Of a DNA stretch of 64,000 bases, positions 18,088 to 34,225 are shown one piece after another. A model generated the notes under the pieces. It saw only the letters and a list, made by a program, of their open reading frames with translations, was not told the DNA's origin and made no database searches. The stretch covers positions 188,434 to 252,433 of the forward strand of contig CAVSCR010000005.1 in NCBI GenBank assembly GCA_963726575.1, in the 5' to 3' direction. This DNA is from an uncultured Actinomycetota bacterium. GTDB lineage: Bacteria > Actinomycetota > Actinomycetes > JAHEKZ01. The translations under genes and the position numbers were made by a program. Each line of letters opens with the position of its first letter. Position 1 is the stretch's first letter.

Positions 18088-18950
18088 CACGTCCCGACCG
18101 ATGTGCCGCTGTGCTCGGGTCGCCGATCGGGCACTCGTTGTCCCCGCGCCTGCACCGGGCCGCCTACGAATGGCTGGGTCTGTCGTGGACCTATGACGCG
18201 ATCGACGTCACGGCGCAGGCCCTGCCTCAGTTCCTCGCCGGCCTCGGACCGGAGTGGGTCGGGCTGTCGCTGACCATGCCGTTGAAGGAAGCCGTCCTCC
18301 CGTTGCTGGACGAGGTGGAGCCGGCCGCGCTGCTGACGCGAGCGGTCAACACCGTGGTGCTCGAGAGCGGTCGACGTCTCGGCTTCAACACCGACATCGA
18401 CGGCCTCGTCGACGTGCTGCGCCGACATCGCTTCGCGGCCGGCACGCCCGCCCTGGTCCTGGGCGGTGGCGCCACCGCACGCTCGGCCGTGGCCGCGTTG
18501 GCTCGGGTGGGCGTCTCGCGTGTCACTGTGGTGACGCGACGGGAATCCGCCGGTGACGACCTCGTGACGCTCGGCGTCGACCTGGGCCAAGACGTCGTGG
18601 CGCGCGACTGGTCTGAGGTGGCGCCGCTGCTCCACTCGACCGCCGGTGCCGCAGATCTCGTGGTGAGCACCGTGCCCACGGGGGCGACCGACGACCTGGC
18701 GGTGACGGGTCCACTGCCCCCCAATGCCCTGCTCGTGGACGTGCTCTACGAACCGTGGCCGACACCACTCGCGCGGGCCTGGGGCAACGCCGGGGGAACC
18801 GCGGTCGGTGGCCGTGACCTGCTCGTCGGCCAGGCCCTGGAGCAGGTCCGCCTGATGACCGGGGAGCCGGTGCCGGCCGACGTCCTCTGGGCGGCCCTGG
18901 CCGACGGGTCCGGCACCTCAAGACCCTCGGGCGACCCGCCGAAAGAGTGA
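18084..18950 (+). CDS. aroE: Shikimate dehydrogenase
   Basis: AVLGSPIGHSLSPRLH, GLSLTMPLKE, AVNT, NTDIDG, LGGGATARS, LLVGQALEQV.LMTG; ATGA overlap with mltG. Confidence 0.95.
   Translation: MTRPDRCAAVLGSPIGHSLSPRLHRAAYEWLGLSWTYDAIDVTAQALPQFLAGLGPEWVGLSLTMPLKEAVLPLLDEVEPAALLTRAVNTVVLESGRRLGFNTDIDGLVDVLRRHRFAAGTPALVLGGGATARSAVAALARVGVSRVTVVTRRESAGDDLVTLGVDLGQDVVARDWSEVAPLLHSTAGAADLVVSTVPTGATDDLAVTGPLPPNALLVDVLYEPWPTPLARAWGNAGGTAVGGRDLLVGQALEQVRLMTGEPVPADVLWAALADGSGTSRPSGDPPKE
18917..18943 (+). promoter_or_regulatory. Sigma-28/FliA/WhiG-type promoter for the roadblock-DUF4388-GTPase operon (inside the aroE 3' end)
   Basis: CTCA-agaccctcgggcgaccc(17 nt)-GCCGAA, about 90 nt upstream of ATG 19035. 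Confidence 0.75.
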
Positions 18951-19034
18951 CAGGAGTGGGCGCCGTCCGGGCGACCGCTCCGGCGACCATTGGCCAGGCA
19001 GGGGCGGTTCACCACCGCCGCGAGAGGGTGCGTC

Positions 19035-19871
19035 ATGTCCCACGGATACGGGTCCTACGACCAGCAGTACGGCGCGGGTGCCACCGCGGACGGTCCCGGT
19101 CGCTCCGGTCAGCTCGACCGGGTGCTCGCGGACCTGATGGGCCAAGCCCCTGAGGTCGAGGCCGCGGCAGTGGTCTCCTTCGACGGGTTGCCCATGGCGT
19201 CTGCCCTGCCGGCAGGCATGGACGAGGACCGGGTGGCCGCCATGAGCGCGGCTCTGCTGTCACTTGGTGAGCGGGCCGCACAAGGTCTGGGCCGCGGTGA
19301 CCTGAACCAGGTCTACGTGGAGGGCCAGACCGGAACCGTGTTCCTGGTGTCCGCCGACGACGAGGCGGTGCTGGTGGCCGTCGGTGCTCGCGGCGCGAAG
19401 GTCGGTCTGATGCTGTTCGAGGTGCGCCAGGCGGCCGACCGGGTGGCCGCTGTGCTGCGCGAGGTGCCGGTCGTGACCGAGCAGCTCGTCGACGACGTGA
19501 CCAGCGCCGAGCCGCAGGTCGTGGCCGTCCCGCAGGTGGTGCCGGTGGCCGAGGTGCCGGTGGCTGAGGTGCCCGTGGCTGAGGTGCCGGTGGTCGAGGT
19601 GCCCCAGGTGCCCGTGCCCGTGGCCGAGCGCCCCCTGATGGCCCCCATGAACGAGCTGCCCCCGACGCCCGCGCCCATCGAGTCCCTGCCCCCCGTGCCG
19701 GTGCCGGTCGCCGAGACCTCCCTTGACGCGGTCGAGGAACCCGAGGACGACGGCGCCGCGGTGGCGTCGGTGCCGCAGGCCGCGTCCAACGGCAACGGCT
19801 CCCACGGCGCTCCGAACGGGACCTGGCCGGTGTACCCGGCGGCCAACGGGGACTCCTCCTCCTGGTCCTGA
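19035..19871 (+). CDS. Roadblock/LC7 (MglB-like) protein with long acidic Pro/Val-rich C-terminal tail
   Basis: LDRVLADL....PEVEAAAVVSFDGLPMASALP..MDEDRVAAMSAALLSLGERA...LGRG.LNQVYVEG..G.VFL is a Robl_LC7 pattern; ATG 19035 after GAGAGGG. Confidence 0.9.
   Translation: MSHGYGSYDQQYGAGATADGPGRSGQLDRVLADLMGQAPEVEAAAVVSFDGLPMASALPAGMDEDRVAAMSAALLSLGERAAQGLGRGDLNQVYVEGQTGTVFLVSADDEAVLVAVGARGAKVGLMLFEVRQAADRVAAVLREVPVVTEQLVDDVTSAEPQVVAVPQVVPVAEVPVAEVPVAEVPVVEVPQVPVPVAERPLMAPMNELPPTPAPIESLPPVPVPVAETSLDAVEEPEDDGAAVASVPQAASNGNGSHGAPNGTWPVYPAANGDSSSWS
19545..19604 (+). repeat. 4 x 15-nt in-frame tandem repeat (VAEVP/VVEVP) in the roadblock tail
   Basis: gtggccgaggtgccg / gtggctgaggtgccc / gtggctgaggtgccg / gtggtcgaggtgccc. 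Confidence 0.9.
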
Positions 19872-19933
19872 CGCCGCAGGCGACCGATCGGCGACTTCGC
19901 CGCCCCTGACGCCATGACGCCCCACCCGCACAG

Positions 19934-21238
19934 ATGGGACCCGACGTGAACCTCGAAGGCTCGCTCGACGCGTTCAGCCTTCCGGACGTCTTCCAGCTGC
20001 TCAGCCTGACGAAGAAGTCCGGGGGACTGCACCTGACCGACGGTCAGGTGCGCGGCGTCGTGTCGTTCCACGAGGGTGCTGTCACGGGGGCGACCGCAGA
20101 TGCCGGGCGCCAGTCGCTGGCCCGACGCCTGGTCGGCATCGGTGTCGTCGACGACGCGGCGCTGCGCCGGGCGGTCGAACGAGCCGCGCACGACCGCGTT
20201 GGTGTGGCCCGGGCACTGGTCGAGGCCGGCGCGGTCGACTCCGAGACGGTGCGCACCTTGGCTGCCGAGCAGACCGTCGACGCCGTCTTCGACCTGCTGC
20301 GCTGGAGCCAGGGTGACTTCGCTTTCGCGCTGGACGAGACCAACCCGAACGACGTCGGGATCGCCCTGCCCGCTGACCAGGTGGTCGCCGAGGCCACCCG
20401 CCGACGCCAGCTGTGGGACTCGGTCTCGAAGGTGATCCCCTCGCCCGACGTCGTGCTGGTGATGCCCGTCGTACTGCCGGCCGATCCGACCGTCACCCGC
20501 GACGAGTGGTCGCTGTTGGCCCTGGTCGACGGAGCCCGCACGGTCGGCGAGCTCGTGGAGCTGAGTGGAGCCGGACAGTTCAGTGTCGTGTCAGCTCTGG
20601 CCGGTCTGGTGCAACGGGGGATGCTGTCGATCAAGGACGAGGATGCGCCGGATCACGTGGTGCTGGTGCTGCGCCGCCAGGTGACGCTGGCCGCGTTGGA
20701 GACCTCGCTGCTGGAGCAGGACGCCCCGACCGACGCCTCCGGGCAGACGCTCACCGGTGAGCCGACGCAGGTCGCGCCGCAGCAGCAGGTGCAGGTGGCG
20801 CCAGCGAACGAGCCAGCCGCCACGGCGCCGCCGACGCCAACACCTGAACCGGCGCAGGTTCGCCAGCCGGCCCCGCCGCCCCTCGACCAACCGTCGGGGC
20901 CGGTCGGACTGACCAAGGCTCCCACGCCCGGGGAGGCAAGCGGCCGCGGCGCCCATCGGCCCGAAGCGGTCGTGCCCGAGCGGCCCGAGCCGTTCCGTCG
21001 GCCCCGCTCTCCGGAGCACCCGGACTCCTTGCCGAACCGACAGTCGGCGTCCGCCCAACCGGTGGCCGCACCGCCGCTGCCGCCGGTCACGTCCTCGGGC
21101 GTACCGGCGAGACCCGCTGGTTCCAGCACGGTCGGGTCGTCGGCGGTAGCCGCGGCGGCGAACCCGGCCATCGAACGTGATCCGAGCGTGAATCGGAGCC
21201 TGCTGCTGAAACTCATCGCCGGGGTCAAGGGGCTGTAG
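19934..21238 (+). CDS. DUF4388 (PATAN-like) domain protein with MshEN-like repeat, Pro-rich linker and C-terminal helix
   Basis: LEGSLDAFSLPDVFQLLSLTKKSGGLHL..G...G.VSFHEGAVTGA N-terminus; VFDLLRWSQGDFAF; EWSLLALVDGARTVGEL winged-helix-like segment; ends RSLLLKLIAGVKGL. Confidence 0.82.
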   Translation: MGPDVNLEGSLDAFSLPDVFQLLSLTKKSGGLHLTDGQVRGVVSFHEGAVTGATADAGRQSLARRLVGIGVVDDAALRRAVERAAHDRVGVARALVEAGAVDSETVRTLAAEQTVDAVFDLLRWSQGDFAFALDETNPNDVGIALPADQVVAEATRRRQLWDSVSKVIPSPDVVLVMPVVLPADPTVTRDEWSLLALVDGARTVGELVELSGAGQFSVVSALAGLVQRGMLSIKDEDAPDHVVLVLRRQVTLAALETSLLEQDAPTDASGQTLTGEPTQVAPQQQVQVAPANEPAATAPPTPTPEPAQVRQPAPPPLDQPSGPVGLTKAPTPGEASGRGAHRPEAVVPERPEPFRRPRSPEHPDSLPNRQSASAQPVAAPPLPPVTSSGVPARPAGSSTVGSSAVAAAANPAIERDPSVNRSLLLKLIAGVKGL

Positions 21239-21240
21239 AG

Positions 21241-21816
21241 ATGGCGACCAACAAGCGACGACGTCACGGTGGCCAAGCCGTCAAGGTGGTGATCACCGGT
21301 CCGTTCGCGGCGGGCAAGACGACGCTGATCCGCACGATCAGCGAGATCACGGTGCTGTCCACCGAGCGGGGGATCACCGACAACACCCGGTCTCGCAAGA
21401 ACGAGACCACCGTGGCCATGGACTTCGGCCGGATCACCATCGACGGCGATCTGGTCCTCTACCTGTTCGGGACACCCGGTCAGGAACGCTTCGACTTCAT
21501 GTGGGAGATCCTCGGCGAGGGCATGCTCGGCTACGTGGTGCTGGTCGACGTCACCCGCGCCGACTCCTTGGCCGAGGCACGAGGCATCCTCGACGCGTTC
21601 CGGCGCATGGCCCGCGTCCCGTTCGTGGTGGGCCTGAACCGTACGGACGGGGACGACGACTCCCAGGAGGCGCAGGTGCGCGAGCACCTCGACCTGGCTG
21701 CCCACATTCCTGTCGTGCCGTGCGACGCGACCGACAAGGAGTCGGTCAAGGCGCTGCTGCTGGCGCTGCTGTACAGCGTTCTCGACGAGATCGAGGCCGA
21801 GCCGGCCACGGTGTAG
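21241..21816 (+). CDS. Small Ras-like ATP/GTP-binding protein (MglA/CvnD-like)
   Basis: VKVVITGPFAAGKTTLI (G1), ETTVAMDFG (G2), LYLFGTPGQERFDFMW (G3 variant), NRTD (G4 variant), CDA. Confidence 0.93.
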   Translation: MATNKRRRHGGQAVKVVITGPFAAGKTTLIRTISEITVLSTERGITDNTRSRKNETTVAMDFGRITIDGDLVLYLFGTPGQERFDFMWEILGEGMLGYVVLVDVTRADSLAEARGILDAFRRMARVPFVVGLNRTDGDDDSQEAQVREHLDLAAHIPVVPCDATDKESVKALLLALLYSVLDEIEAEPATV

Positions 21817-21828: not shown

Positions 21829-22038
21829 ATGACGTGGTTCCGCCGTAGCGCTCGGGCTCGCCCCGCGGTCGCGCCGGCCGCCCAGGTGCCGGACTGGTGG
21901 CACGAGCCGGTGGTCCGGCTCACCTTCGCCGATGACTCGGTGGTGACGCTGCCGCCGGGCGACCCTCGTACCCGGGCGTTCACCGCTCTGGCCGACGCCC
22001 TGCGTGGGTCAAGCGGGTCACCCGTCCGGCCGATCTGA
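21829..22038 (+). CDS. Small hypothetical protein (69 aa), last gene of the GTPase module
   Basis: ATG 12 nt after the GTPase stop; MTWFRR...VRLTFADDSVVTLPPGDPRTRAFTALADAL; fills the gap before the next gene. Confidence 0.6.
   Translation: MTWFRRSARARPAVAPAAQVPDWWHEPVVRLTFADDSVVTLPPGDPRTRAFTALADALRGSSGSPVRPI
22008..22034 (+). promoter_or_regulatory. Sigma-28-type promoter for the O-antigen-ligase-like gene (possibly leaderless)
   Basis: GTCA-agcgggtcacccgtccg(17 nt)-GCCGAT; GTG start 10 nt after the -10 hexamer. Confidence 0.6.
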
Positions 22039-22043: not shown

Positions 22044-23930
22044 GTGTCCACCCTAGAAGCGCTCGTGCCCCACGGGAGCGCCACGACGCGACGCTCGTGG
22101 TGGCAGCGGGTCGGCGGCGTCGAGGCCCTCGCGGCCGCGCTCGCCCTGCTGGGCTGGGGCATCGTCTTGACGCATGCCACCGGTGGACAGGCTCCCTACA
22201 CGTTGGCTCTGGTCACCGCGTCTGCGCTGCCGTTGCTCTTCGTCAGCGGGGCGGCTCGACGGGTGCCCCTGCGCGCGCTCGCCTTCGTGCTGCTGCCCGG
22301 GGCGGTCGCGCTCGGCCTGAACAGCGTGTCGGCCACCGGCTGGTCGGGACTCGGCGAGGCCGCCGCGTGGTGGTATGCCGCTCTGCTCGGACTCGGCGTC
22401 GTCAGCTACGCACGGACTCCGGCCCGGCGGCAGCTCGTGGCCGCACTGGTGCTGCTGGTCGGCACCGAGCAGATGTACCAGGCCTGGTTCGCCTGGTGGG
22501 GATCCGGCGATCGCCAGGCCCTGATGGTCGGCACCTTCTTCTGGCACAACCCCTTCGCCGCGTTCCAGGCGGCGATCTCGCTGGTGGCGCTCGCGGTCGC
22601 GATGCGGGCGACCGGCTGGCTGCGCCGTCTCGGGCTCGTGCTCGCCCCTTGGTTGGCCGCCGGGGTGTGGCTGTCCGGGAGTCGTGCCGGCCTGGCCCTG
22701 TGGGTGCTGGCGGTCCTGGCCCTCGTGGCCCTCGGGGCACGCACCTGGCGCCAGGCCGCCACGGTTGGCGCCGCATCCGTGGGGTCGCTCGCGCTCGCCT
22801 GGCTGTTGGCCTCACCGGTGCTGATGGGGGGAGCGGCCGGGTCGGGTGGCTCCGGCGTCGGTGCGGCCGGGCGCACGGAGGCGGCTGAGGGCAACTTCTT
22901 GATCCGGCTGGACTACTGGCGGGCCGCGGCGCGGCTGGCCAGCCACCATCTCTGGACCGGTTCCGGGTTCGGCTCGTTCGCCGGGGCCGGAGCCCCGTAC
23001 ATGCCGGCCGACAAGTCGGCCAGCTCTGCGGTGCACAACGGCTGGTTGCAGGCGATGGTCGACGGCGGTCTCGTGCTGGCCCTTCCGGTCATCGCAGTCA
23101 CGGGGTGGCTCGCCATCCGTGCCGTCCGGCGGCTGCTGAGCGCCCGGCATGCCGGCGCCGACCCGGTCGCCATCGGCGCGGCATCCGGGGTCGTGCTCTT
23201 GCTCGCCCACGCCCTCTTCGACCTCGACTGGGCCTACCCGGCACTGCTGGCGCTGTTCGCCGTGCTGGTGGGGCTGCTCCCGTGGCGGTTGCAGGCGGTC
23301 GCCGCCCCCCGGTCGGGGCGCCTCTCCCGCTGGGGGGTCGCCCCAATTCCGGTGGTGGCAGTGCTGGCTGCGGTGGGAGTGCTGACGGTGGGTGCCGCGC
23401 TGGTCGACGGCGCGCAACGGGTGCAGGATCGCCCCGCTGTCGGGTGGCAGCGGGTCGTCGACCAGGTGCTTCCCGTCAGGGCGCTGGCCGCGCGCCTGCC
23501 CAGTGAGTCGCAGCAGATCGCAGTCCTGCTCGCGGCGCGCACGCTGGCGCCGCCGGCGGTTCGCGACGCGCTGGCCCAGACGGTCCGAGCCAGCGCCGAC
23601 GATCCCGTGCTGGCCCAGTACCGGGCATTCGCCATGGTGGCGCTCGGCGACGTCGACGCCGGCCTCGCCGAATCGGCCGCGAGGTATCCGGCCGCTCCTC
23701 GCCCGAAGACCGTGCTGGCCCGCGCCGAGGTGCTGGTGGCCGCCGGCGACACCCGTGGCGCCGTCGACCTCGTCACCCAGGCACTCGGGGCGGCGCAACG
23801 GGCCGGATCGCCGGCTGCGCCTGATCTGGCGCAATGGCTCAGTTTGCATCCCGCTTCTGCCGAAGCCTCTACGCAGGGCGGGGATTCGACCTCGGTGGGG
23901 ACCGACACGTTTGGGGAGGCCACCCGGTGA
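22044..23930 (+). CDS. O-antigen ligase (Wzy_C)-family polytopic membrane protein; candidate pilin oligosaccharyltransferase
   Basis: About 12 hydrophobic segments; GTFFWHNPFAAF, LSGSRAG, IRLDYWRAA, WTGSGFGSF, AVHNGWLQAMVDGGL, LLAHALFD; Ala-rich helical C-terminus. Confidence 0.85.
   Translation: MSTLEALVPHGSATTRRSWWQRVGGVEALAAALALLGWGIVLTHATGGQAPYTLALVTASALPLLFVSGAARRVPLRALAFVLLPGAVALGLNSVSATGWSGLGEAAAWWYAALLGLGVVSYARTPARRQLVAALVLLVGTEQMYQAWFAWWGSGDRQALMVGTFFWHNPFAAFQAAISLVALAVAMRATGWLRRLGLVLAPWLAAGVWLSGSRAGLALWVLAVLALVALGARTWRQAATVGAASVGSLALAWLLASPVLMGGAAGSGGSGVGAAGRTEAAEGNFLIRLDYWRAAARLASHHLWTGSGFGSFAGAGAPYMPADKSASSAVHNGWLQAMVDGGLVLALPVIAVTGWLAIRAVRRLLSARHAGADPVAIGAASGVVLLLAHALFDLDWAYPALLALFAVLVGLLPWRLQAVAAPRSGRLSRWGVAPIPVVAVLAAVGVLTVGAALVDGAQRVQDRPAVGWQRVVDQVLPVRALAARLPSESQQIAVLLAARTLAPPAVRDALAQTVRASADDPVLAQYRAFAMVALGDVDAGLAESAARYPAAPRPKTVLARAEVLVAAGDTRGAVDLVTQALGAAQRAGSPAAPDLAQWLSLHPASAEASTQGGDSTSVGTDTFGEATR
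23838..23864 (+). promoter_or_regulatory. Sigma-28-type promoter for pilB (inside the 3' end of the ligase gene)
   Basis: CTCA-gtttgcatcccgcttct(17 nt)-GCCGAA, 63 nt upstream of GTG 23927. Confidence 0.72.
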
Positions 23931-25669
23931 CGGATGTGGTGCACAACGACGCCTGGACGTCGGATGCCGTGATGTCAGATGTCGCCCGGCAGATGGTGGA
24001 CCTGCTGGTCAACGCCAAGCTGGTCACCCTGGAGCAGGCGCAAGATGCCTACAACGAGTCGCTCACGAGCGGCGAGACGTTGTCCCAGACGCTGGTGCGC
24101 AAGCGCATCGTCACCGAGGCGCAGATCAAGATGGCGCTGTTCAGCCTCGGCGGGCTGGAGGTCGTCGACCTGTCCGACTACTCCGTCGACGGCAGTGTGG
24201 TCGCGCGGGTGTCGGCGTCGTTGTGCCGGACGCACCTCGCCATCCCGATCAAGTTCGACGACGACGGCCGGCTTCTGCTGGCGATGGAGAATCCCTACAA
24301 CGTCCTGGCCATCGACGACATCAAGGCCAATCTCGCGGCCGCTGGGCTGCAGGTGGACATCCACCGCGTGGTCGCGACCAAGGACGACATCCTGGCCGCG
24401 ATCGACAAGTTCTTCCGCGACGACGACCAGCTCGACGACCTCCAGGCCGCGATGGAGAGCGAGGGCGACGACAGCGAGGACCTCTCGTCGCTGAAGGAGG
24501 CGACCGAGGACGCCCCGATCGTCAAGTGGGTCAACGGCGTCATCACGAACGCGATCAGGGATCGCGCCTCCGACATCCACATCGAGCCCGGTGAGCATTA
24601 CCTACGGGTGCGCCAGCGCATCGACGGTGTCCTCCACGACGTCATGCAGTCGAACCGCTCGATCCAGTCCGGCGTGATCTCGCGCCTGAAGATCATGGCC
24701 GACATCAACATTGCCGAGCGCCGCGTGCCGCAGGACGGCCGGCTCTCGGTGGTCGTGAACGGACGCAAGATCGACCTGCGTGTTGCCACGCTTCCCACGG
24801 TGTGGGGCGAGAAGGTCGTCATGCGGGTGCTCGACAACTCCACGGCTCGTCTGGAACTGGCGGACCTCGGCTTCTCCCAGCACAATCACGACTCGTACGG
24901 CGAGAGCTTCACCAAGCCGTACGGCATGATCTTGGTGACCGGCCCGACCGGTTCGGGGAAGTCGACCACGCTCTACGCGACGCTGAACCAGATCGCGCGT
25001 CCCGAGGTGAACGTCATCACCGTCGAGGACCCGGTCGAGTACCGGATCCCGGGCATCAACCAGGTGCAGACGAACGTCAAGGCCGGGCTGACCTTCGCCT
25101 CGGCGTTGCGCTCCATCCTTCGCTCGGACCCCGACATCGTTCTGATCGGTGAGATCCGCGACCACGAGACCGCCCAGATCGCGGTCGAGGCCGCCCTCAC
25201 CGGTCACCTCGTGCTGTCGACGCTGCACACCAACGACGCTCCTTCGTCGATCACCCGGTTGGTCGAGATGGGACTGGAACCGTTCCTGGTCGGTTCTGCG
25301 CTCGACTGTGTGCTTGCCCAGCGGCTCGCGCGGCGACTGTGCGAGAAGTGCCGGGAGGAGTACGTGCCGACTCCGGAGCAACTGGCCTCGGCCCGCTACC
25401 CGTGGCACGACGGCGAGCCCCTGCCGACGCTGTTTCGTCCCATCGGCTGCTCCAACTGCTCCAAGACCGGCTACAAGGGGCGGCTCGCTCTGCACGAGGT
25501 GATGCAGGTGTCGGAGCGGATCGAGCGAATGGCCGTGGAGCGTGAGTCAGCCGCCCGGATCATGACAGCCGCCAAGGAGGAGGGCATGTTGACGCTGCGC
25601 GAGGACGGCATGTCGAAAGTCGCCGAGGGCGTGACGTCGATCGACGAGATCCTCCGCGTGGTCGTCTAG
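23927..25669 (+). CDS. pilB: Type IV pilus extension ATPase PilB (GspE/PulE family)
   Basis: ASDIHIEP, DINIAERRVPQDGR, GPTGSGKSTTLY, TVEDPVE, LRSDPDIVLIGEIRD, GHLVLSTLHTND, Zn motifs LCEKC...GCSNCSKTGYKGR; GTG after GGGGAGG. Confidence 0.96.
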   Translation: MTDVVHNDAWTSDAVMSDVARQMVDLLVNAKLVTLEQAQDAYNESLTSGETLSQTLVRKRIVTEAQIKMALFSLGGLEVVDLSDYSVDGSVVARVSASLCRTHLAIPIKFDDDGRLLLAMENPYNVLAIDDIKANLAAAGLQVDIHRVVATKDDILAAIDKFFRDDDQLDDLQAAMESEGDDSEDLSSLKEATEDAPIVKWVNGVITNAIRDRASDIHIEPGEHYLRVRQRIDGVLHDVMQSNRSIQSGVISRLKIMADINIAERRVPQDGRLSVVVNGRKIDLRVATLPTVWGEKVVMRVLDNSTARLELADLGFSQHNHDSYGESFTKPYGMILVTGPTGSGKSTTLYATLNQIARPEVNVITVEDPVEYRIPGINQVQTNVKAGLTFASALRSILRSDPDIVLIGEIRDHETAQIAVEAALTGHLVLSTLHTNDAPSSITRLVEMGLEPFLVGSALDCVLAQRLARRLCEKCREEYVPTPEQLASARYPWHDGEPLPTLFRPIGCSNCSKTGYKGRLALHEVMQVSERIERMAVERESAARIMTAAKEEGMLTLREDGMSKVAEGVTSIDEILRVVV

Positions 25670-25712: not shown

Positions 25713-25739
25713 CTCAAGGGGTGACGCCCTCGCGCCGAT
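25713..25739 (+). promoter_or_regulatory. Sigma-28-type promoter for pilT-pilC
   Basis: CTCA-aggggtgacgccctcgc(17 nt)-GCCGAT in the pilB-pilT intergenic region. Confidence 0.78.
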
Positions 25740-25814: not shown

Positions 25815-27619
25815 GTGGAGACCTCGGGATACCGCAACCCTGCGCCTTCTCCGGACGCCCCTGCTGAGCCGAACGCGGCTCCAGCCACCGACTACGGCTT
25901 CTTCGCGCCCGCACCCGCCGTGGTGCCGGCCGACGGTGCCACTGAACCCGCCCCGGAACCTGCCCCGGAACCCACCGTCTCGGCCACCGACGAGGTGGTC
26001 CACGAGTCCGTGACCGAGCCGACGGTCGAGCCGGCAGTCGAGCCGCGGCGACCGAGCCGGCGTACGAGCCGGCCCTGGCGGTACCCGCACCTGAGGCGGA
26101 ACCCGCGCCCGAACCTGCGCCCGAACCTGCGCCCGAACCTGTTGTGCAGTCGCCCGCCGAGGTCGCACCCACCTTGGTCGAAGAGGCAACGCCCGAGGCG
26201 GCCGAGGGCCTGCCCATGTCCCTCGCCATCGCTGCGCAGGAGGCCGCCGAGGTCGACCTGAGCCAGCCGGTCGAGCCGGCCGGCGTGGACTACTCCGGCT
26301 TCAACGGCTTGGGTGACGCGCCGCAGACGAGCGACGTGCTGACTGACGCACCCGCGGAGTCGGGCCTGGAGGGCAGCTATGACGCCGGCTACGACAGCGC
26401 GTTGACGGCGCCCACGGAGTCCACCTACGAAGCGGGGTACGACGCGGGCTTCGAGACTGCGGTTCTCGCCGAGGAGGCCGGCGTCGGCCTGGCCGACTCC
26501 GAGGCCGAGGAGTCGGCCTACCACCGTCGTACCACCGAGGTCTCGGCGAGTGACGACATCATCCTGGTCGACCTGCTGCTCGAGGTGCTGAACCGTAAGG
26601 CGTCCGACCTTCACCTGAGCGCCGGAGCCCGGCCGATGATCCGGGTCAACGGCGAGCTGGAGCAGCTCGACGACCAGCCCGTCCTGACCCCGCCGGTGAT
26701 CCAGCGCGTCATGTACGCGTCCATCACCCAGCGGCAGCGAGAGAAGTTCGAGGAGAACCTCGAGCTCGACTTCGCCTACTCCGTCCCGGGCCGGGCCCGG
26801 TTCCGCGTCAACATGTACCGGCAGCGCGACGCCGTCGGTGCTGCGTTCCGGTTGATCCCGTTCGAGATCAGGCGGCTCGAGGACCTCGGCGTACCACCGC
26901 AGGTGGCGAACTTCTCGATGCTGCCCCGTGGATTCGTCCTGGTGACAGGCCCCACCGGTTCTGGCAAGTCCACGACGCTGGCGTCGCTGCTCGACCTGGC
27001 GAACCGGAACCGCAAAGACCACATCATGACGGTCGAGGACCCGATCGAGTTCCTCCACCGGCACCAGTCGTGCCTGGTCAACCAGCGCGAGGTGGGGGAG
27101 GACACGTGGTCCTTCCAGAACGCACTGAAGCATGTGCTGCGGCAAGACCCCGACATCATCCTGGTCGGCGAAATGCGTGACCTGGAGACGATCTCGGTGG
27201 CGTTGACCGCGGCCGAGACCGGCCACCTGGTGTACGCGACCCTGCACACGCAGGATGCGGCGCAGACGATCGACCGCGTGATCGACGTGTTCCCGCCGCA
27301 CCAGCAGCAGCAGATCCGCGCGCAGCTGGCGACGTCGATCCAAGGCGTTGTCTGCCAGACGCTGGCGCGCAGCGCCGACGGCCGTGGCCGCGTCGTTGCC
27401 TGCGAGGTGCTGGTGGCGACACCGGCGGTTCGCAACCTGATCCGCGAAGGAAAGACCCACCAGATCTACAGCGCGATGCAGGCCGGCGGGAAGTTCGGCA
27501 TGCAGACCATGGACCAGCACCTCGCGGAGCTGGTGAACAAGGGCCGGATCAACTACGACACCGGCCTGGAGAAGTGCCACCACATCGAGGACTTCAACCG
27601 GCTCACCGGTCGGATCTGA
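25815..27619 (+). CDS. pilT: Type IV pilus retraction ATPase PilT with long acidic N-terminal extension; apparent 1-nt frameshift near 26043-26045
   Basis: Intact core ASDLHLSAG, RFRVNMYRQR, GPTGSGKSTTL, TVEDPIE, LRQDPDIILVGEMRD, TGHLVYATLHT, AVRNLIREGK. The Pro/Glu-rich leader starts at GTG 25815 (SD GAGGGAGG) and changes frame at gagccgcggcg. An alternative ATG at 26216 has a GAGGG SD. Confidence 0.92.
26105..26140 (+). repeat. 3 x 12-nt perfect tandem repeat (APEP) in the PilT leader
   Basis: gcgcccgaacct x3. Confidence 0.92.
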
Positions 27620-27630
27620 GGGGCTGACTC

Positions 27631-28851
27631 ATGGCAACGACCACCTACCAGTACTCCGTCCGAGACAAGGCCGGCAAGGTCTTCACGGGCACCATCGAGG
27701 CGGACTCCGAAGCCGCGGTGGCACAGAAGCTGAAGAGCATGGGCTACGCGCCCATGTCGATCGGCCAGCACAAGCCTGGCCTGGGTCGCGACCTCGCCAT
27801 CCCGGGGTTCGGGCCGAAGGTGAAGCTGAAGGACCTGGCCGTGATGTCGCGACAGTTCGCGACGATGATCAACTCCGGCCTGTCGCTGATGCGGGCGCTG
27901 AGCATCCTGGCCGAGCAGACGCCGAACAAGAAGCTTGGCCCGGTGCTGGCTGAGGTGCGCAACGAGGTCGAGACCGGCCAGGCGTTGTCGTCCGCGCTTG
28001 CGCTGCACGACGACGTCTTCCCGCCCCTGATGATCAACATGGTGCGTGCCGGCGAGGTCGGCGGCTTCCTCGACCAGGTGCTGCTGCAGGTCGCGGCGAA
28101 CTACGAGGCCGAGGTCAGGCTGCGCGGAAAGATCAAGTCGGCCATGACCTACCCGGTCGTGGTGTTCTGCATCGCCATGCTCGCGGTGACCGGCATGTTG
28201 CTGTTCATCGTCCCCGTGTTCGCGAAGATGTTCCAGAGCCTTGGCGCCAAGCTGCCGATGGCGACCCAGGTCCTGGTGAACCTCTCACACTTCCTGAAGA
28301 CCTGCTTCCCGCTGATCATCATCGCTGCCATCGTCGCGATGGTGCTGTGGAAGAAGTTCAAGCGCGACGAGCGCGTGCGCAACGTGGTCGACCCGCTGAA
28401 GCTGAAGATCCCGGTCTTCGGTGCGTTGTTCCAGAAGATCGCCATCAGCCGGTTCACGCGCAACTTCGGCACCATGCTGCACGCCGGTGTCCCGATCCTG
28501 CAGAGCCTCGACATCGTGGCCGACACCTCAGGCAACGTCGTCGTGGCCCACGCGGTCCGCGACGTCCAGGAGAGTGTGCGTAACGGTGAGTCGTTGACCG
28601 CGCCCCTGGCGAACCACGCGATCTTCCCGCCCATGGTGGTGCAGATGATGTCGGTCGGTGAGGACACCGGGGCGCTCGACTCGATGCTGCACAAGATCAG
28701 TGACTTCTACGACCAGGAGGTCGAGGCGACCACGGAGTCGTTGACCTCCCTGATCGAGCCTTTGATGATCGCGGTGCTCGGCGGCCTGGTCGGGGCGATG
28801 ATCATCGCCCTGTACATGCCGATCTTCAGCATCTTCAACCTGATCAAGTAG
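27631..28851 (+). CDS. pilC: Type IV pilus platform protein PilC (T2SSF family)
   Basis: YQYSVRD..GK...G.IEA, DLAVMSRQFATMINSGL, MVRAGEVGGFL, RFTRNFGTML.AGVPI, GEDTGALDSML.KISDFY, LIEPLMI. Confidence 0.97.
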   Translation: MATTTYQYSVRDKAGKVFTGTIEADSEAAVAQKLKSMGYAPMSIGQHKPGLGRDLAIPGFGPKVKLKDLAVMSRQFATMINSGLSLMRALSILAEQTPNKKLGPVLAEVRNEVETGQALSSALALHDDVFPPLMINMVRAGEVGGFLDQVLLQVAANYEAEVRLRGKIKSAMTYPVVVFCIAMLAVTGMLLFIVPVFAKMFQSLGAKLPMATQVLVNLSHFLKTCFPLIIIAAIVAMVLWKKFKRDERVRNVVDPLKLKIPVFGALFQKIAISRFTRNFGTMLHAGVPILQSLDIVADTSGNVVVAHAVRDVQESVRNGESLTAPLANHAIFPPMVVQMMSVGEDTGALDSMLHKISDFYDQEVEATTESLTSLIEPLMIAVLGGLVGAMIIALYMPIFSIFNLIK

Positions 28852-28863: not shown

Positions 28864-28905
28864 CGACCAGGCCCGGTCGTCCCGCGGGACGACCGGGCCT
28901 GGTCG
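28864..28905 (+). terminator. Perfect ~19-bp hairpin after pilC
   Basis: cgaccaggcccggtcgtcc-cgcg-ggacgaccgggcctggtcg. Confidence 0.8.
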
Positions 28906-28943: not shown

Positions 28944-28970
28944 CTCAAGTCGTCTTCCGCCGGGGCCGAA
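28944..28970 (+). promoter_or_regulatory. Sigma-28-type promoter for the riboswitch-major pilin transcript
   Basis: CTCA-agtcgtcttccgccggg(17 nt)-GCCGAA(AA), about 20 nt upstream of the aptamer. Confidence 0.8.
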
Positions 28971-28990
28971 AACCCCTAGGTCAAGAGCCA

Positions 28991-29076
28991 TCCGGCCAGA
29001 AACGGCACTCCCGTCGTAAGGCGGGGTCGCAAAGCCAGGGGACCCAAGCCGGTCAGCCCAGCTACCTCGGTCCGGA
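28991..29076 (+). ncRNA. Cyclic di-GMP-I (GEMM) riboswitch in the major pilin 5' UTR
   Basis: GGCAC, stem CCCGTC/GGCGGG capped by a GNRA loop (GTAA), conserved GCAAAG junction, second stem GACC..GGTC, then GCTACC; matches the recalled c-di-GMP-I consensus. Boundaries approximate. Confidence 0.85.
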
Positions 29077-29142
29077 TCCCTCCGGGGGTCCTAGAGGCGA
29101 CAAGCCGGCGGCTCACCGGTTCGTCCGAAAGGGCAACAGCTG

Positions 29143-29583
29143 ATGCTCGCACGAATTCGCAAGGCGATGGACGAGCGTGAAGAGGGCTTCACCCTCATCG
29201 AGCTCCTCGTCGTCATCATCATCATCGGTATTCTGGCCGCGATTGCGATCCCGGTCTTCCTGAACCAGCGCAAGAAGGCAGTCGACGCCTCGATGAAGTC
29301 CGACTCCCGGACGATCGCCAACGAGGAAGAGACCTACTTCACTGACTACCAGGCCTACGTTGCCACGAGCGGCTCCGCGCCGGTCATTGGTGCCACCACG
29401 GTCCGGTTGTCCACCGGTAACACCGCCACGATCACGCTGAACACTGCTACTTCGGCGTACTGCATCCTGATGGACCGTGTGGCGGGCGCCCAGCCCGGCA
29501 CCCAGAAGTGGGTCTACATCAGCAGCCAGGGCGGCCTCCAGGCAACTGGCACCGTCGCCTGCCCGGCAGCGGGTTCCTTCTAG
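29143..29583 (+). CDS. pilA: Major type IVa pilin (PilA-like)
   Basis: Class III signal MLARIRKAMDEREEG/FTLIELLVVIIIIGILAAIAIPVFLNQRKK with Glu5; C-terminal Cys pair; has its own promoter, riboswitch and terminator. Confidence 0.92.
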   Translation: MLARIRKAMDEREEGFTLIELLVVIIIIGILAAIAIPVFLNQRKKAVDASMKSDSRTIANEEETYFTDYQAYVATSGSAPVIGATTVRLSTGNTATITLNTATSAYCILMDRVAGAQPGTQKWVYISSQGGLQATGTVACPAAGSF

Positions 29584-29598
29584 TCCAGATCGCAGCTC

Positions 29599-29649
29599 GA
29601 AACGGCGGGAGCCGGTGCCCCTGCGGCACCGGCTCCCGTCCGCCGTTTC
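29599..29649 (+). terminator. Hairpin after the major pilin
   Basis: 14-bp perfect stem cgggagccggtgcc-cctgc-ggcaccggctcccg, with outer complementary arms gaaacggcgg/ccgccgtttc. Confidence 0.8.
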
Positions 29650-29766
29650 CAGACGCGCTGACTGGCTAGCCCGATCGGGCTCCGTCAATCGGCGCAACAG
29701 GGGCGACGCGAGCCACGTCGATACCGACAGCGCACCCATTGCTAAAGAAGGACTTGAGGAGGACAG

Positions 29767-30222
29767 ATGCCACCCCGGGACGACTTCCGGGGCCAGGGGG
29801 AGCTGGACTCACCCGACACAGGATTCACCCTGATCGAGTTGCTCGTCGTCATCATCATCATTGGCATCCTGGCGGCAATCGCGATCCCGGTGTACCTGAA
29901 CCAGAGGCAGCGGGCCTATGACGCCGCAGCCAAGTCGGACATCCGCAACCTGGCCCAGTTCGAAGAGACCTACCTGGTCAGCTACGGCACGTACGGTTCG
30001 TTCACGGACCTGGCCGGCAACTCGCTGTCGGTGACGGCGACGCGCAAAGTGACGCTGACGATCAGCTACATCGGCGGCACCGGGTTCTGCCTCACCGGCA
30101 AGAACGCGATGTCCCCGACGACGTGGTACTACGACAGCCAAGCCGGTGGTCTGCAACCCACCGGGAGCGGCAGCTGTCCGATCTCGACGGGCGGCACCAG
30201 CGGCGGAAGCCTGACCGGTTGA
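29767..30222 (+). CDS. Second type IVa pilin (PilA paralogue)
   Basis: SD GAGGAGG; leader ...DSPDTG/FTLIELLVVIIIIGILAAIAIPVYLNQR; FCLTG...WYYDS..GGLQ...SC, same layout as the first pilin. Confidence 0.9.
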   Translation: MPPRDDFRGQGELDSPDTGFTLIELLVVIIIIGILAAIAIPVYLNQRQRAYDAAAKSDIRNLAQFEETYLVSYGTYGSFTDLAGNSLSVTATRKVTLTISYIGGTGFCLTGKNAMSPTTWYYDSQAGGLQPTGSGSCPISTGGTSGGSLTG

Positions 30223-30240: not shown

Positions 30241-30277
30241 CCGGCCGGCCACCCGCAGCGCGCGGGTGGCCGGCCGG
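30241..30277 (+). terminator. 16-bp hairpin after the second pilin
   Basis: ccggccggccacccgc-agcgc-gcgggtggccggccgg. Confidence 0.78.
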
Positions 30278-30320: not shown

Positions 30321-30347
30321 CTCAAGACGGCCTCAGACGATGCCGAT
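30321..30347 (+). promoter_or_regulatory. Sigma-28-type promoter for the minor pilin operon (possibly leaderless)
   Basis: CTCA-agacggcctcagacgat(17 nt)-GCCGAT; ATG 30357 is 10 nt downstream. Confidence 0.78.
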
Positions 30348-30356: not shown

Positions 30357-31709
30357 ATGCGGATGGCATCGACGCGTCTTCGACGTGTCTCGCGACGGAT
30401 GACCGGCTCTGACACCCAAGCCGGTCTCACGATGATCGAGGTCATCATGGCCATGGTGATCTTCGCCATGGTGGCCGGGGCGGTCGTGACCGGCCTGGCG
30501 AGCGCCATGAAGACGGCACGGACCGACAAGAACCGCGTGGCGGCGGCCAACCTCGCCGCCCGCGAGCTGGAGATCACCCGCAACGAGTTCAACTCGAGCT
30601 CGGGCAGCCCGGCCGCGCTGGCCGCGCAGAACCAGGTGGTCGACCCTCACCCGCTGCCCGGCGGCACGGCTGGCAACCCGCTGCTGGTCGACAACGTCCC
30701 CTACACGGTCACCCGCAACGTCGAGTGGCTGCCCGCCGGCAGCGGCAAGAGTGCCTGTGACGGCGGCGCCGCGATCACGTACCCGACCCTGTCGGTGCAC
30801 GTCGAGGTGACCTGGCCGGTGATGGGCAACGTGCCACCGGTCGAGACGACGACGATGATGACGCCGGCCAAGGGCACCATGGCCTCGACTCTGTCGTTCG
30901 TCGGAGTGAAGGTCCTCAACAGTGCCGGGTCGCCGCAGAGCGACCTGCCGGTGTCGCTGAGCGGCCCAGGAGGATCCTTCACCGACACCACGGCCGACGA
31001 CGGCTGCGCCGTCTTCGCGCTCTCGTCAGCCGGCACGTACACGGCATCGCTGAGCTCGAGCGGCTACGTCGACTACTACGGCACCGCGGCGCCGACCAAG
31101 ACGGTGGTGGTGACGGCGAGCACGCTGTCGCAGCTGCAGTTCAACTACGACAAGGCCGCGACGTTGACGGTGGGTCTCACGACCCAAGCCGGATACGCGC
31201 TGCCCACCACGTTGCCCGGTATCACCTTGGCCAACACCGGGCTGCAGCCCTCCGGCGTCCGTACGCAGGCGTCGAGCGGCGCCAGCACCACCATCCCGAC
31301 GTTGTGGCCGTTCACCGACGGCTACTCGGTGTGGGCCGGTACGTGCTCGCAGTCCGACCCCGCGACCGCAGGCGGCACGCGCTCCCCGGCCGTCATCGTC
31401 AATCCCGGCGCCTCCGGATCGACGACCGCGTCGTTGGCGCCGGTCCAGGTGAACGTCAAGAACGCCGCGGGAGTCGCACTGGCCAACGCGACCGTGGTCG
31501 CGGTACCGCTGTCGACCACTGGCTGCCTCACGACGGAGACCTCGTTGACCCTCGGCGTCACGAACTCGACCGGCCTGCTGATGACGTCCTTGCCGGCCGG
31601 CAAGTGGACCTTGCAGGTCTCGGGCAAGAGCCCGTCAGGCAGCTGGCCGACTACTCCGTCGCTGCTCCCGACCTCATCCCCGACGACCATGATGGTGGTG
31701 ACCACGTGA
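30357..31709 (+). CDS. Large PilV-like minor pilin with C-terminal beta-rich (prealbumin/carboxypeptidase-regulatory-like) domains
   Basis: Leader MRMASTRLRRVSRRMTGSDTQAG/LTMIEVIMAMVIFAMV, then A..LAARELE; Ser/Thr/Gly-rich C-terminal part with TxxxGCAVF and TNSTGLL motifs. Confidence 0.8.
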   Translation: MRMASTRLRRVSRRMTGSDTQAGLTMIEVIMAMVIFAMVAGAVVTGLASAMKTARTDKNRVAAANLAARELEITRNEFNSSSGSPAALAAQNQVVDPHPLPGGTAGNPLLVDNVPYTVTRNVEWLPAGSGKSACDGGAAITYPTLSVHVEVTWPVMGNVPPVETTTMMTPAKGTMASTLSFVGVKVLNSAGSPQSDLPVSLSGPGGSFTDTTADDGCAVFALSSAGTYTASLSSSGYVDYYGTAAPTKTVVVTASTLSQLQFNYDKAATLTVGLTTQAGYALPTTLPGITLANTGLQPSGVRTQASSGASTTIPTLWPFTDGYSVWAGTCSQSDPATAGGTRSPAVIVNPGASGSTTASLAPVQVNVKNAAGVALANATVVAVPLSTTGCLTTETSLTLGVTNSTGLLMTSLPAGKWTLQVSGKSPSGSWPTTPSLLPTSSPTTMMVVTT

Positions 31710-32422
31710 TCGCAGCGTTGCGACGCCGGATCCGATCCGCTCGCCCAGACGGTGGCTTCACGCTGACCGAGCTGCTGGTGACCATCTTCATCCTCGGCAT
31801 CGTGCTGGCCGGCGTGCAGACGACCCTGATCTTCACGCAGCGCACGGTCGGCGAGCAGTCGATCCGCGTCGACCAGACGCAGCAGACCAGCGAAGCGATG
31901 AACGCGGTCACGAAGACGCTGCGCACGGCCGTTCTGCCGTCCCAGCTCAACGGCACCTGCTCCAGCTGTGACCTGGCCGCCTTCATCCAGGGAACGCCGA
32001 CCTCGGTGTCCTTCTACGCCAACATCAACAACGACGGCAACACCGTCGGCCCGTCGCGGGTGAGCTACTCGGTGAACTCCAAGTACGAGCTCATCGAGTC
32101 GATCCAGCCGCCGAACCCGCACGCGACCACCGACTTCAACTACCAGTACTGCACGCCAGGGACGTCCGGCTGCGTGGTCAAGACCCGAGTCCTGGCCCGC
32201 AATCTCGTTCCGGGCTCGGCGATCTTCACCTACTACGACCCGAACGGTGTCTCGCTCGGCACCGGCACGCTGACCGCCACCGACCTGGCCAACGTCGACA
32301 CGATGGACGTGGTCATCTCGGTACGCGACTCCACGGCGTCGCGGGTACCCCCCACCACCTTCATGGCACGCGTGAGCATGCCGAACCACGACTCCGTCAC
32401 CACGGCGTCGGCGAGTCCGTGA
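31706..32422 (+). CDS. PilW-like minor pilin
   Basis: GTGA overlap; MIAALRRRIRSARPDGG/FTLTELLVTIFILGIVLAG; AMNAVTKTLRTA. Confidence 0.85.
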   Translation: MIAALRRRIRSARPDGGFTLTELLVTIFILGIVLAGVQTTLIFTQRTVGEQSIRVDQTQQTSEAMNAVTKTLRTAVLPSQLNGTCSSCDLAAFIQGTPTSVSFYANINNDGNTVGPSRVSYSVNSKYELIESIQPPNPHATTDFNYQYCTPGTSGCVVKTRVLARNLVPGSAIFTYYDPNGVSLGTGTLTATDLANVDTMDVVISVRDSTASRVPPTTFMARVSMPNHDSVTTASASP

Positions 32423-32433
32423 CAGGAGCGACG

Positions 32434-34072
32434 ATGTTCGCAGAGATGGTCGCCCGACTTCGTGCGCGGTCGCAGCGCGTAGACGGCCGCGATGAGGGCA
32501 TTGCCATGATCATGGTGATGGCCTCGATCGTGGTGCTCAGCATGCTGCTGGCCACCGCCTACATGGTGGCGCTACAGGCGCAGCCGGAAGCGCGGCACAC
32601 CCAGGACTGGGACGGTGCGCTCGCAGCGGCGCAGGCCGGCGTGGACGACTACATCGCCCGTCTGAACCAGAGCGACACCTACTGGACCACGGTTGACTGC
32701 ACGAACCCAGCCTTGAAGGGTCCCAAGGCAGGAACGAACTCCTGCGGCTGGACCTCGACGACGCCGGTCGGATGGCAGTCGGTCCAACCGGGCAACCCGA
32801 ACGCGGGCCGGTTCCACTACGACGTCGACGCGTCGGGCATCTACAGCCAAGGCGCAGTCCGCGTGACCGCCACCGGACAGGTGCGCGGCGTCTCGCGCTC
32901 CATCCAGGTGCTGGTGTCCCGAGGTGGCTCGACCCAGTTCCTGTACTACACCGACTTCGAGGACGCCGACCCGGCGAACACCCAGGCCTACCCGAGCGGG
33001 GCGCCGAACAACGCCTGTGGCAAGTCCGGTCCGACGCTGGCGCAGTACTACTGGCAGAACAGCAGCCGTGGCTGTGTCGAGATCCAGTTCGTCACGGGTG
33101 ACACGCTGGACGGCGCCGTGCACTTCAACGACACCCCACTGATCAACGGATCGACAGTCTTCCTGAAGTCCTACGAGACGTCAGACCCGAAGTGCCAGAC
33201 CCCGTCGATCGCCAACTGCCGTCGCGGGACCGGTACCCCGAACCTGAACGGTGGCCAGCCGCGGTATGCACCGCTGCTGTACCTGCCCGACAACAGCAAC
33301 CAGTTCTCGACGTTCCCCGGCTGCCAGTACACCGGCGACACCCGCATCGTGTTCAACAACGACGGAACCATGAAGGTGTGGAGCTACGGCAGCACGGGCA
33401 CAACGCTCGGCACCGGTTGCGGCAACCCGGCGGGACCGTGGCCGCAGACCGTCAACGTGCCCAACGACCAGGTGATCTACATCAAGAACGGCTCGACGCA
33501 GAGCAAGTGCACCACGGGACAGATCGGTGACGGCCTGCCCTCTGGCAACGGACGACAACGTGAACACGCCGACGTTCTACTGCGGCAACGGAAACGCCTA
33601 CATCGAGGGCACCGTCAAGGGTCGCGTGACGCTGGCGGCGCAGAACAACGTGATCGTCACCGACGACCTGCTGGTCGCCAGCACACCGGTCACCCAGGCG
33701 CCGGTCGGCCCGGACATCGTCGGCCTGGTGGCGGGCAACTCGGTGGTCGTCTACCACCCGGTCAATGCCTCGGGCACGAACCTGAAGGCGCCGGAGGACC
33801 GCTGGATCTACGCCTCGATCCAGGCCCTGCAGCACAGCTTCTGGGTCCAGTCCTACGACCAGGGCGTCAAGATGGGCACCCTGCACGTACGCGGCTCGAT
33901 CGCCCAGAAGTGGCGCGGCATCGTCGGTACCAGTGGCAGCAGCGGCACCGGCTACCTGAAGGACTACGGCTACGACTCGCGGCTGAAGTTCACCTCACCG
34001 CCGTACTTCCCCCAGTGGACGAACGCGGTGTGGGGCGCCAAGACCACGGCGGAGCTGACCCCGCAGTACTGA
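32434..34072 (+). pseudogene. PilX-like large minor pilin/tip adhesin, interrupted by an apparent +1 frameshift at 33538-33540 (real lesion or sequence error)
   Basis: Leader ...RDEG/IAMIMVMASIVVL (no Glu5, PilX-like); ALAAAQAGVDDY. After GDGLP the first frame turns non-protein-like, while the shifted frame continues LATDDNVNTPTFYCGNGNAYIEG...YDSRLKFTSPPYFP to TGA 34072. Confidence 0.8.
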
Positions 34073-34083
34073 GCAACCGCACA

Positions 34084-34121
34084 CGGCCGCGACCCGAGGT
34101 GTTTCACCCGGGTCGCGGCCG
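34084..34121 (+). terminator. Hairpin after pilX
   Basis: cggccgcgacccg-aggtgtttcac-ccgggtcgcggccg (13-bp perfect outer stem). Confidence 0.72.
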
Positions 34122-34198
34122 CATGCTGACCCGCGGCCGTCGACGTGGCCATCACCCCGCCGGTTCGGGATTCGACTCCGACAGGTTGTCGTCAAAGG

Positions 34199-34225
34199 CT
34201 CAAGCCCAGGCAAAGTCGCTCCGAT
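34199..34225 (+). promoter_or_regulatory. Sigma-28-type promoter for pilMNOP
   Basis: CTCA-agcccaggcaaagtcgc(17 nt)-TCCGAT (one mismatch to GCCGAT), in the pilX-pilM intergenic region. Confidence 0.68.

Follow-up and report, generated by a model that had tools for sequence, protein, structure and literature searches.

Here, we analysed a 64,000-nucleotide (nt) stretch of DNA from an uncultured Actinomycetota bacterium (contig CAVSCR010000005.1 of assembly GCA_963726575.1, positions 188,434 to 252,433 of the forward strand; hereafter the window), which carries a block of type IV pilus genes. Seven copies of a two-block motif, CTCA and GCCGA(A/T) separated by 17 nt, were found in this block at window positions 18917, 22008, 23838, 25713, 28944, 30321 and 34199, two of them with a single mismatch. 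An earlier note on this DNA had listed the same seven copies, and each was recovered at its position on the + strand. The conservation of the motif in related genomes, its promoter-like geometry and its match to published recognition sequences lead us to propose, with a probability of roughly 80%, that these elements are promoters recognized by RNA polymerase together with a sigma factor of the sigma-28 family (in actinobacteria, the WhiG/FliA group), which would switch on the whole pilus block. Since no sigma gene lies in the window, we infer the identity of the sigma factor from these features.

In the proposed mechanism, a single sigma-28-family sigma factor would recognize CTCAAG (core TCAAG) as the -35 element and GCCGA(T/A) (core CGA) as the -10 element, thereby switching on the pilus block as six or seven separate units. 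These would comprise a Roadblock/DUF4388/GTPase module, a Wzy_C ligase-like gene (probably together with pilB), pilT-pilC, the pilins, the minor pilins and pilMNO. Transcription would start at a purine located 10 nt past the -10 hexamer, which would render two of the units leaderless, while GC-rich hairpins would end most of the units.

A two-block motif in the pilus block

Transcription units were delimited by analysis of the reading frame from GC content at third codon positions (GC3) and by Pfam domain searches. Each copy of the motif was found immediately 5' of a unit, either between genes or within the final codons of the gene upstream, which bears out the placement proposed in the earlier note. 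In the window, CTCA-N17-GCCGAW (where W is A or T) produced five exact matches (18917, 23838, 25713, 28944 and 30321), all on the + strand and all in the pilus block. In 100 dinucleotide-preserving shuffles, 0.28 matches were expected and none of the shuffles reached five, in agreement with the note's rough chance estimate. The scan covered both strands of the window. The two copies with one mismatch (22008 and 34199) were not supported by this 10-position motif, as 14 matches were obtained with one mismatch allowed, against 9.3 expected.

A PilB scan, restricted to one genome per species, provided 80 related loci (62-72% PilB identity, 1.28 Mb in total), in which the pil gene order is conserved; the best PilB relative is only 72% identical. 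These loci are labelled uncultured Actinomycetota, Frankiales, Sporichthyaceae, Motilibacteraceae, Acidothermaceae, Kineosporiaceae or Nanopelagicales. Here, CTCA-N17-GCCGAW occurred 110 times on the gene strand and nine times on the opposite strand, and spacers of 13-20 nt other than 17 yielded between 1 and 16 matches. Because A5 and G6, which lie outside the search pattern, proved almost invariant (108 and 109 of the 110 sites, respectively), the motif was refined to the 12-position form (g)CTCAAG-N15-GCCGA(T/A)(g). CTCAAG and GCCGAW were separated by 15 nt in 108 exact matches, by 14 nt in 13, and by any other distance in three at most. With at least 11 of the 12 positions matching, the refined motif was found at 243 gene-strand sites compared with 18 on the opposite strand. 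The single mismatches fell on C1 (37 sites), G22 (47), C23 (28) and W27 (14) and almost never on TCAAG or CGA; C24, G25 and A26 were each retained in 241 or more of 242 related sites.

The positions of the motif are shared as well. It follows aroE in 49 of 61 related loci, lies between pilB and pilT in 72 of 77, precedes pilM in 31 of 34 (in several with the same TCCGAT variant as in the window) and stands between pilC and the pilins in 23 of 53. It precedes the ligase gene in four of the eight related loci having that gene and stands directly before pilB in 16 of 79, and most of the other sites precede further pilin or minor-pilin genes.

Applied to the window with no more than one mismatch, CTCAAG-N15-GCCGAW recovered exactly six sites (18917, 22008, 25713, 28944, 30321 and 34199), all on the + strand and all in the pil block, against 0.40 expected and with none of the 100 shuffles reaching six. 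The variant copies at 22008 and 34199 are thereby rescued, and their deviations, GTCAAG and TCCGAT, are exactly the kinds of mismatch tolerated in the relatives. The earlier count of five exact and two one-mismatch copies therefore stands for the exact copies with the short motif, and for the variants only with the longer one. The observation that AG follows the -35 tetramer in six copies was also correct, the exception being the copy at 23838 (CTCAGT). This copy, which had been counted as a promoter like the others, matches the loose motif exactly but agrees with only 10 of the 12 refined positions, breaking two that are invariant in relatives, and is therefore retained as a weak variant. CTCAAG alone is not enriched in the window (16 found, 17.8 expected). 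Among its 10 copies on the + strand, the five in the pil block are those with a following -10 element. Only one other match to the relaxed query T[AC]AA-N16-NNCGA[AT] was present in the window, at 63845-63870 (+), where it lies inside a methyltransferase gene and is probably a chance occurrence.

Individually, the first site (18917-18943, CTCAAG-N15-GCCGAA, 12 of 12 positions) lies in the last codons of aroE and would drive the Roadblock/DUF4388/GTPase module from a predicted start at about 18953. The second site (22008-22034, GTCAAG-N15-GCCGAT, 11 of 12) has a predicted start at 22044, coinciding with the first base of the ligase-like gene's GTG start codon, and this mRNA would thus be leaderless. 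Transcripts from 22008 probably include pilB as well, given the overlap between the ligase stop codon and the pilB start. The uncertain third site (23838-23864, CTCAGT-N15-GCCGAA), the weakest of the seven and defective in its -35 element, is located inside the end of the ligase gene, 63 nt before the GTG of pilB. A weak internal promoter is plausible at this position because three relatives possess the motif at the same place before pilB (CTCCAG-N15-ACCGAT in locus L003, CTTCAG-N15-GTCGAT in L072 and GTCAAG-N15-GCCGAT in L036). Downstream of pilB, the site at 25713-25739 (CTCAAG-N15-GCCGAT, 12 of 12, predicted start about 25749) would drive pilT-pilC, and that at 28944-28970 (CTCAAG-N15-GCCGAA, 12 of 12, predicted start 28980) the pilin gene or genes. 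For the site at 30321-30347 (CTCAAG-N15-GCCGAT, 12 of 12), the predicted start at 30357 coincides with the A of the first minor pilin's ATG, so that this mRNA would also be leaderless; minor-pilin sites are common in the relatives. The last site (34199-34225, CTCAAG-N15-TCCGAT, 11 of 12, predicted start about 34235) would drive pilMNO and the gene that follows. The second pilin gene, pilA2, has neither a motif nor a riboswitch of its own in the interval preceding it (29584-29766), where a CTAAAG stands without a CGA -10 element. Since a strong hairpin also precedes it, pilA2 may depend on read-through.

The geometry of the motif resembles that of a promoter. It consists of two short, non-palindromic blocks separated by a spacer that is constant in length and not in sequence, and it is always oriented toward the genes. 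At position 37 of the motif, 10 nt past the hexamer, a purine is present in 83% of the related sites. ATG or GTG codons opening long open reading frames (ORFs) begin at this position in 16 relatives' sites and at position 35 in nine, with 0-9 at other offsets. In all four ligase promoters of the relatives, the ATG or GTG of a long ORF falls exactly at position 37. Leaderless mRNAs are common in actinobacteria. The purine peak and the leaderless start codons together predict that transcription starts at this purine.

The ends of most units were marked by GC-rich hairpins without U-tails. Five strong ones were identified, namely a perfect 19-bp hairpin after pilC (28864-28905, +; z-score -6.2), which ends the pilT-pilC unit, and others after pilA1 (29607-29637; -6.8), pilA2 (30241-30277; -4.2), the pilVWX unit (34085-34120; -3.5) and the pilMNOP unit (37377-37415; -6.2, before aroC). 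Four of these lie directly upstream of the next promoter or motif. The earlier note had described four units as ending in a strong hairpin; all four do (pilT-pilC, pilA, pilVWX and pilMNOP), whereas the total is five, since pilA1 and pilA2 are each followed by one. No strong hairpin was detected 3' of the GTPase gene or of pilB. A generic sigma-70-type promoter scan and a scan for U-tailed terminators returned nothing above shuffles. As the conserved, strand-specific two-block motif has a fixed spacer, follows terminator-like hairpins and stands at a fixed distance from leaderless starts and from a riboswitch (described below), we conclude on sequence grounds that the elements are promoters.

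Proposed assignment to a sigma-28-family factor

The motif can be read either as CTCA-N17-GCCGA or as TCAA-N16-GCCGA, and in this way it satisfies both of the actinobacterial WhiG queries published in a 2026 preprint, CTCA-N16-17-GCCGA (WhiG1, Actinoplanes missouriensis) and T(A/C)AA-N16-GCCGA (WhiG2, Streptomyces and Rubrobacter). At the -35 element, TCAA is present at six of the window sites, and in the relatives TCAAG is either invariant or exchanged for TAAAG. Among 34 riboswitch-linked promoters of the window and its relatives, the -35 element was CTCAAG in 23, CTAAAG in seven, GTAAAG in one and CTTAAG in one, and thus switches between the C variant and the TAAA of canonical sigma-28 promoters. 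TCAAG is also the -35 element of the Escherichia coli FliA promoters of flgKL and fliL (TCAAG-N14-GCCGATAA), which were defined by chromatin immunoprecipitation sequencing. At the -10 element, GCCGA carries an invariant central CGA and varies only in the two preceding bases. The same preprint reports the central CGA to be the most conserved part of the -10 element, and the last three bases to be so variable among confirmed actinobacterial targets that they were dropped from the query. Counted from T(A/C)AA to GCCGA, the spacing is N16 at each window site. Moreover, the pattern of tolerated changes, with variation outside TCAAG and CGA, agrees with that published for WhiG/FliA targets.

The biological context points in the same direction. 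FliA-family sigma factors direct pilus and flagellar genes in Actinoplanes, and WhiG targets a type IV pilus cluster in Rubrobacter, where start sites were mapped. The 2026 preprint further predicts that WhiG governs pilus clusters in Cellulomonadaceae, Cryptosporangiaceae, Sanguibacteraceae, Rubrobacteraceae and Jonesiaceae. In Acidothermus, whose family is represented among our relatives, a WhiG orthologue and flagellar genes have been reported.

Several observations weigh against this assignment. The full -10 octamer GCCGATAA is not reproduced in the motif, as positions 28-29 show no richness in A (59% of sites have G at position 28) and the terminal TAA of the canonical sequence is not conserved, and the spacer exceeds that of E. 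coli by 1 nt. Pfam searches of all window genes revealed no sigma-28, RsiG, FlgM or flagellar gene in the 64 kb, nor did the 10 kb on either side of pilB contain one in any of the 80 related loci. A tblastn search of the window and the 80 loci with Streptomyces venezuelae WhiG, whose sequence was taken from a PDB alignment, returned only noise. Furthermore, WhiG is reported to be absent from Frankia, a member of the broader group, so its presence in the source organism cannot be assumed.

Some of these observations would suit promoters of a different alternative sigma factor, of the extracytoplasmic function (ECF) or another group-3 type, that merely resemble the sigma-28 consensus. The missing sigma gene in the window and the 80 flanks and the absent 3' TAA both fit such a factor, and several actinobacterial ECF sigma factors use a CGA- or CGT-containing -10 element. 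We nevertheless consider this reading improbable, given that both halves of the motif and their spacing match the published WhiG/FliA queries exactly, that the -35 element alternates with the canonical CTAAAG in relatives, that TCAAG is a proven FliA -35 element in E. coli, and that pilus clusters have been tied experimentally to the sigma-28 family in two actinobacterial genera.

A binding site for a transcription factor or another DNA-binding protein would also appear as a conserved sequence upstream of co-regulated genes, as the operators of regulators do. Here, however, the two blocks are short and non-palindromic around a fixed, unconserved 15-nt spacer and are strictly oriented with the genes. 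A purine, and in places a leaderless start codon, stands exactly 10 nt downstream, the riboswitch starts about 14 nt after that purine, and no competing sigma-70-like promoter was found in these gaps, all of which makes an operator very unlikely. Chance matches, or a compositional artefact of GC-rich DNA, could account for the lack of enrichment of the short motif at one mismatch (14 against 9.3), yet they leave unexplained the counts that no shuffle attained, the confinement of the matches to one strand and one block, the invariance of A5 and G6 outside the search pattern, and the same-position conservation across 80 species-level loci. The conservation data thus refute this explanation, which we regard as having virtually no chance of being correct. 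The sigma-28 reading of the earlier note is supported by motif conservation, promoter geometry and the match to the published WhiG/FliA queries, with the sigma factor itself assigned by inference. Its term 'regulon' can be applied to this pilus block and not asserted more widely. The literature on which it drew was essentially right, the consensus reported for A. missouriensis being CTCA-N16-17-GCCGAACT and the -10 element of sigma-28/WhiG being GCCGATAA.

Sigma-28-family control of type IV pili is already known in Actinomycetota, being established in two genera and predicted in several families. One close parallel is the consensus CTCA-N16-17-GCCGAACT reported for the FliA-family (WhiG1-type) factors acting on zoospore flagellar and type IV pilus genes in A. 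missouriensis. The two systems share the -35 tetramer, the GCCGA -10 element and the spacing, and in both the target includes a type IV pilus cluster divided into several units. The window differs in that its -35 element extends to an almost invariant CTCAAG, its spacer has one fixed length and GCCGA(A/T) is not followed by 'CT'. The host lineage differs as well, with relatives labelled Frankiales, Sporichthyaceae, Motilibacteraceae and Acidothermaceae. In Rubrobacter radiotolerans, WhiG of the WhiG2 type controls pili through the consensus T(A/C)AA-N16-GCCGATAA and is gated by RsiG and cyclic dimeric guanosine monophosphate (c-di-GMP). The TCAA-N16-GCCGA reading of the window motif, the presence of several promoters within one pilus cluster and the link to c-di-GMP are common to both. 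In Rubrobacter, however, c-di-GMP acts via the anti-sigma factor RsiG, whereas the sole c-di-GMP sensor seen in the window is an RNA aptamer in the pilin leader. With the canonical sigma-28 promoter of E. coli FliA and Bacillus subtilis SigD (TAAA-N15-GCCGATAA), the motif shares the two-block layout and the CGA core, and with E. coli in particular the TCAAG of flgKL and fliL. In addition to the spacer and the terminal TAA noted above, it differs from the canonical case in that its targets are pili and not flagella.

What is specific to this block is the longer, near-invariant -35 element, the single spacer length and the predicted start, the layout of six to seven promoters with hairpin-bounded units that is conserved across a large and mostly uncultured clade, and a pilin promoter fused to a c-di-GMP-I riboswitch. 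These findings would extend sigma-28/WhiG control of pili to a further, large group of Actinomycetota known mostly from metagenomes. They also provide a sharper consensus, CTCAAG-N15-GCCGAW with the start ten bases on, that can be used for whole-genome regulon scans.

A c-di-GMP-I aptamer in the pilin leader

The 163-nt leader of pilA contains a c-di-GMP-I (GEMM-I) aptamer at 28994-29070 (+), which the earlier note had missed. The Rfam model RF01051 scored 49.3 bits (gathering score 35), and the riboswitch begins about 14 nt past the predicted start at 28980. When seven related loci were retested, RF01051 passed the threshold in all of them (eight matches, 41-56 bits), one of them belonging to the complete Acidothermaceae bacterium B102 genome. 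With a covariance model derived from 34 copies, 43 additional ones were detected in about 38 of the 80 loci, each lying on the gene strand in the interval from pilC to a pilin gene. Across the 34 sequences, compensatory changes were observed in eight of 18 predicted pairs, the tetraloop varied among homologues (GUAA, GCAA, GAGA and GUGA), and GGCA and CGCAAAGC were invariant. The ligand-contacting bases of the classical class were identified as the G before the paired GC, the A in CGCAAAGC and the C in AGC, under what we take to be the correspondence to Vc2 numbering. The c-di-GMP-I-GGC variant was considered and rejected, as the sequence is below that family's threshold and has the classical A in place of the variant's G.

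In 28 of 33 cases, the invariant GGCA of the aptamer lies 60-63 nt from the point where the promoter motif begins. This fixed distance indicates that promoter and riboswitch are kept as one unit and lends independent support to the predicted start. In some relatives, the promoter-riboswitch unit is duplicated, with one copy before each pilin gene. A long-range helix was predicted between 28986-28992 and 29110-29116, pairing the first bases of the leader (GAGCC) with a conserved GGCUC box about 30 nt before the ribosome-binding site; it displayed some covariation and exceeded the shuffle and slide controls (alignment A2, columns 9-15 and 173-179). Two other candidate leader helices, an anti-sequestor and a sequestor, did not rise above the same controls and were rejected. 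Forcing the P1 helix of the aptamer to form caused no consistent shift in the predicted accessibility of the ribosome-binding site across 26 leaders.

As the riboswitch resides on the pilin transcript, we propose that pilin output would also depend on c-di-GMP. A tentative extension of this proposal, which we hold to be possible and rather less than probable, is a two-level gating in this large, mostly uncultured clade, whereby a sigma-28-family sigma factor fires the six to seven promoters and the c-di-GMP-I riboswitch tunes only the major pilin. If only the RsiG-independent WhiG1 is present, the riboswitch would constitute the route of c-di-GMP to the pilus, functionally replacing the anti-sigma factor of Rubrobacter and Streptomyces; if WhiG2 and RsiG are present, the same messenger would act twice on one gene. 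The promoter-riboswitch unit would offer a concrete link between c-di-GMP and pili in monoderm high-GC bacteria.

In Clostridioides difficile, a class II c-di-GMP riboswitch, which is an 'on' switch, lies upstream of pilA1. In both systems, the gene for the major type IV pilin of a monoderm bacterium thus has a leader that senses c-di-GMP, whereas the aptamer in the window belongs to class I and the phylum is different. The accessible literature on Actinoplanes contains no mention of such a riboswitch, and no description of a c-di-GMP-I riboswitch on actinobacterial pilin genes was found in our literature search, which is weak evidence of novelty.

Gene content of the pilus block

GC3 frame analysis and Pfam place the pilus block within a run of housekeeping genes, with alaS, ruvX, yceG and aroE on the upstream side and aroC, aroK, aroB, aroQ, a peptidase gene and efp downstream. 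The first unit (19035-21816, +) encodes a Roadblock/LC7 protein (19035-19871), a DUF4388 protein (19934-21238) and a small Ras-like GTPase (21241-21816), and the genes for the latter two retain synteny in 54-55 of the 80 related loci. This module presumably resembles the MglB/MglA-type polarity modules of pilus-driven motility. The next gene (22044-23930, +; Pfam PF04932) encodes a Wzy_C, O-antigen-ligase-like membrane protein. It lies directly 5' of pilB, is present in only 10 of the 80 relatives and may specify a pilin O-glycosylating enzyme of the PglL/TfpO kind. Through the shared promoter, a polarity-type GTPase module and a possible ligase for pilin glycosylation would thus belong to one regulon.

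The extension ATPase gene pilB (23927-25669, +), whose start was set from homologue coverage and sequence, encodes a T2SSE domain preceded by an MshEN N-terminal domain. The MshEN fold binds c-di-GMP in MshE. In this MshEN-type domain of PilB (23927-24500), the glycines of the usual c-di-GMP-binding motif are not obvious. The following unit (25815-28851, +) comprises pilT (25815-27619) and pilC (27631-28851). PilT carries an N-terminal extension (25815-26144) that is rich in proline and glutamate, starts with VETSGY and displays a frame change near 26000-26140. In loci L001 and L010 the extension forms a single intact ORF, and in L003 it is broken too, a pattern suggestive of indel errors from long-read sequencing of a repeat.

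The pilin unit (29143-30222, +) consists of pilA1 (29143-29583) and pilA2 (29767-30222), both recognized by the Pfam N_methyl domain and each followed by a strong hairpin. The minor-pilin (pilVWX) unit (30357-34072, +), delimited by N_methyl matches and the frame plot, contains genes at 30357-31709 and about 31700-32422 and a large pilX-like gene at 32419-34072. A 1-nt insertion near 33544-33551 divides the latter over two frames; here the window reads GCAACGGACGAC and L003, in which the gene is a single ORF, reads GCCAACGACGAC, with one base fewer; the broken gene is either a pseudogene or an assembly indel. In L003, a prepilin-peptidase-like ORF (20319-21527) is located between pilX and pilM. 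No such ORF was present at 34073-34298 or elsewhere in the 64-kb window. The last unit of the block comprises pilM (34299-35363), a pilN-like gene (35360-36040), pilO (36043-36711) and a gene for an unassigned 213-amino-acid protein (36725-37366), all on the + strand and examined with Pfam. Beyond the block, the sole tRNA gene of the window, for tRNA-Leu(CAA), lies at 42785-42860 on the - strand.

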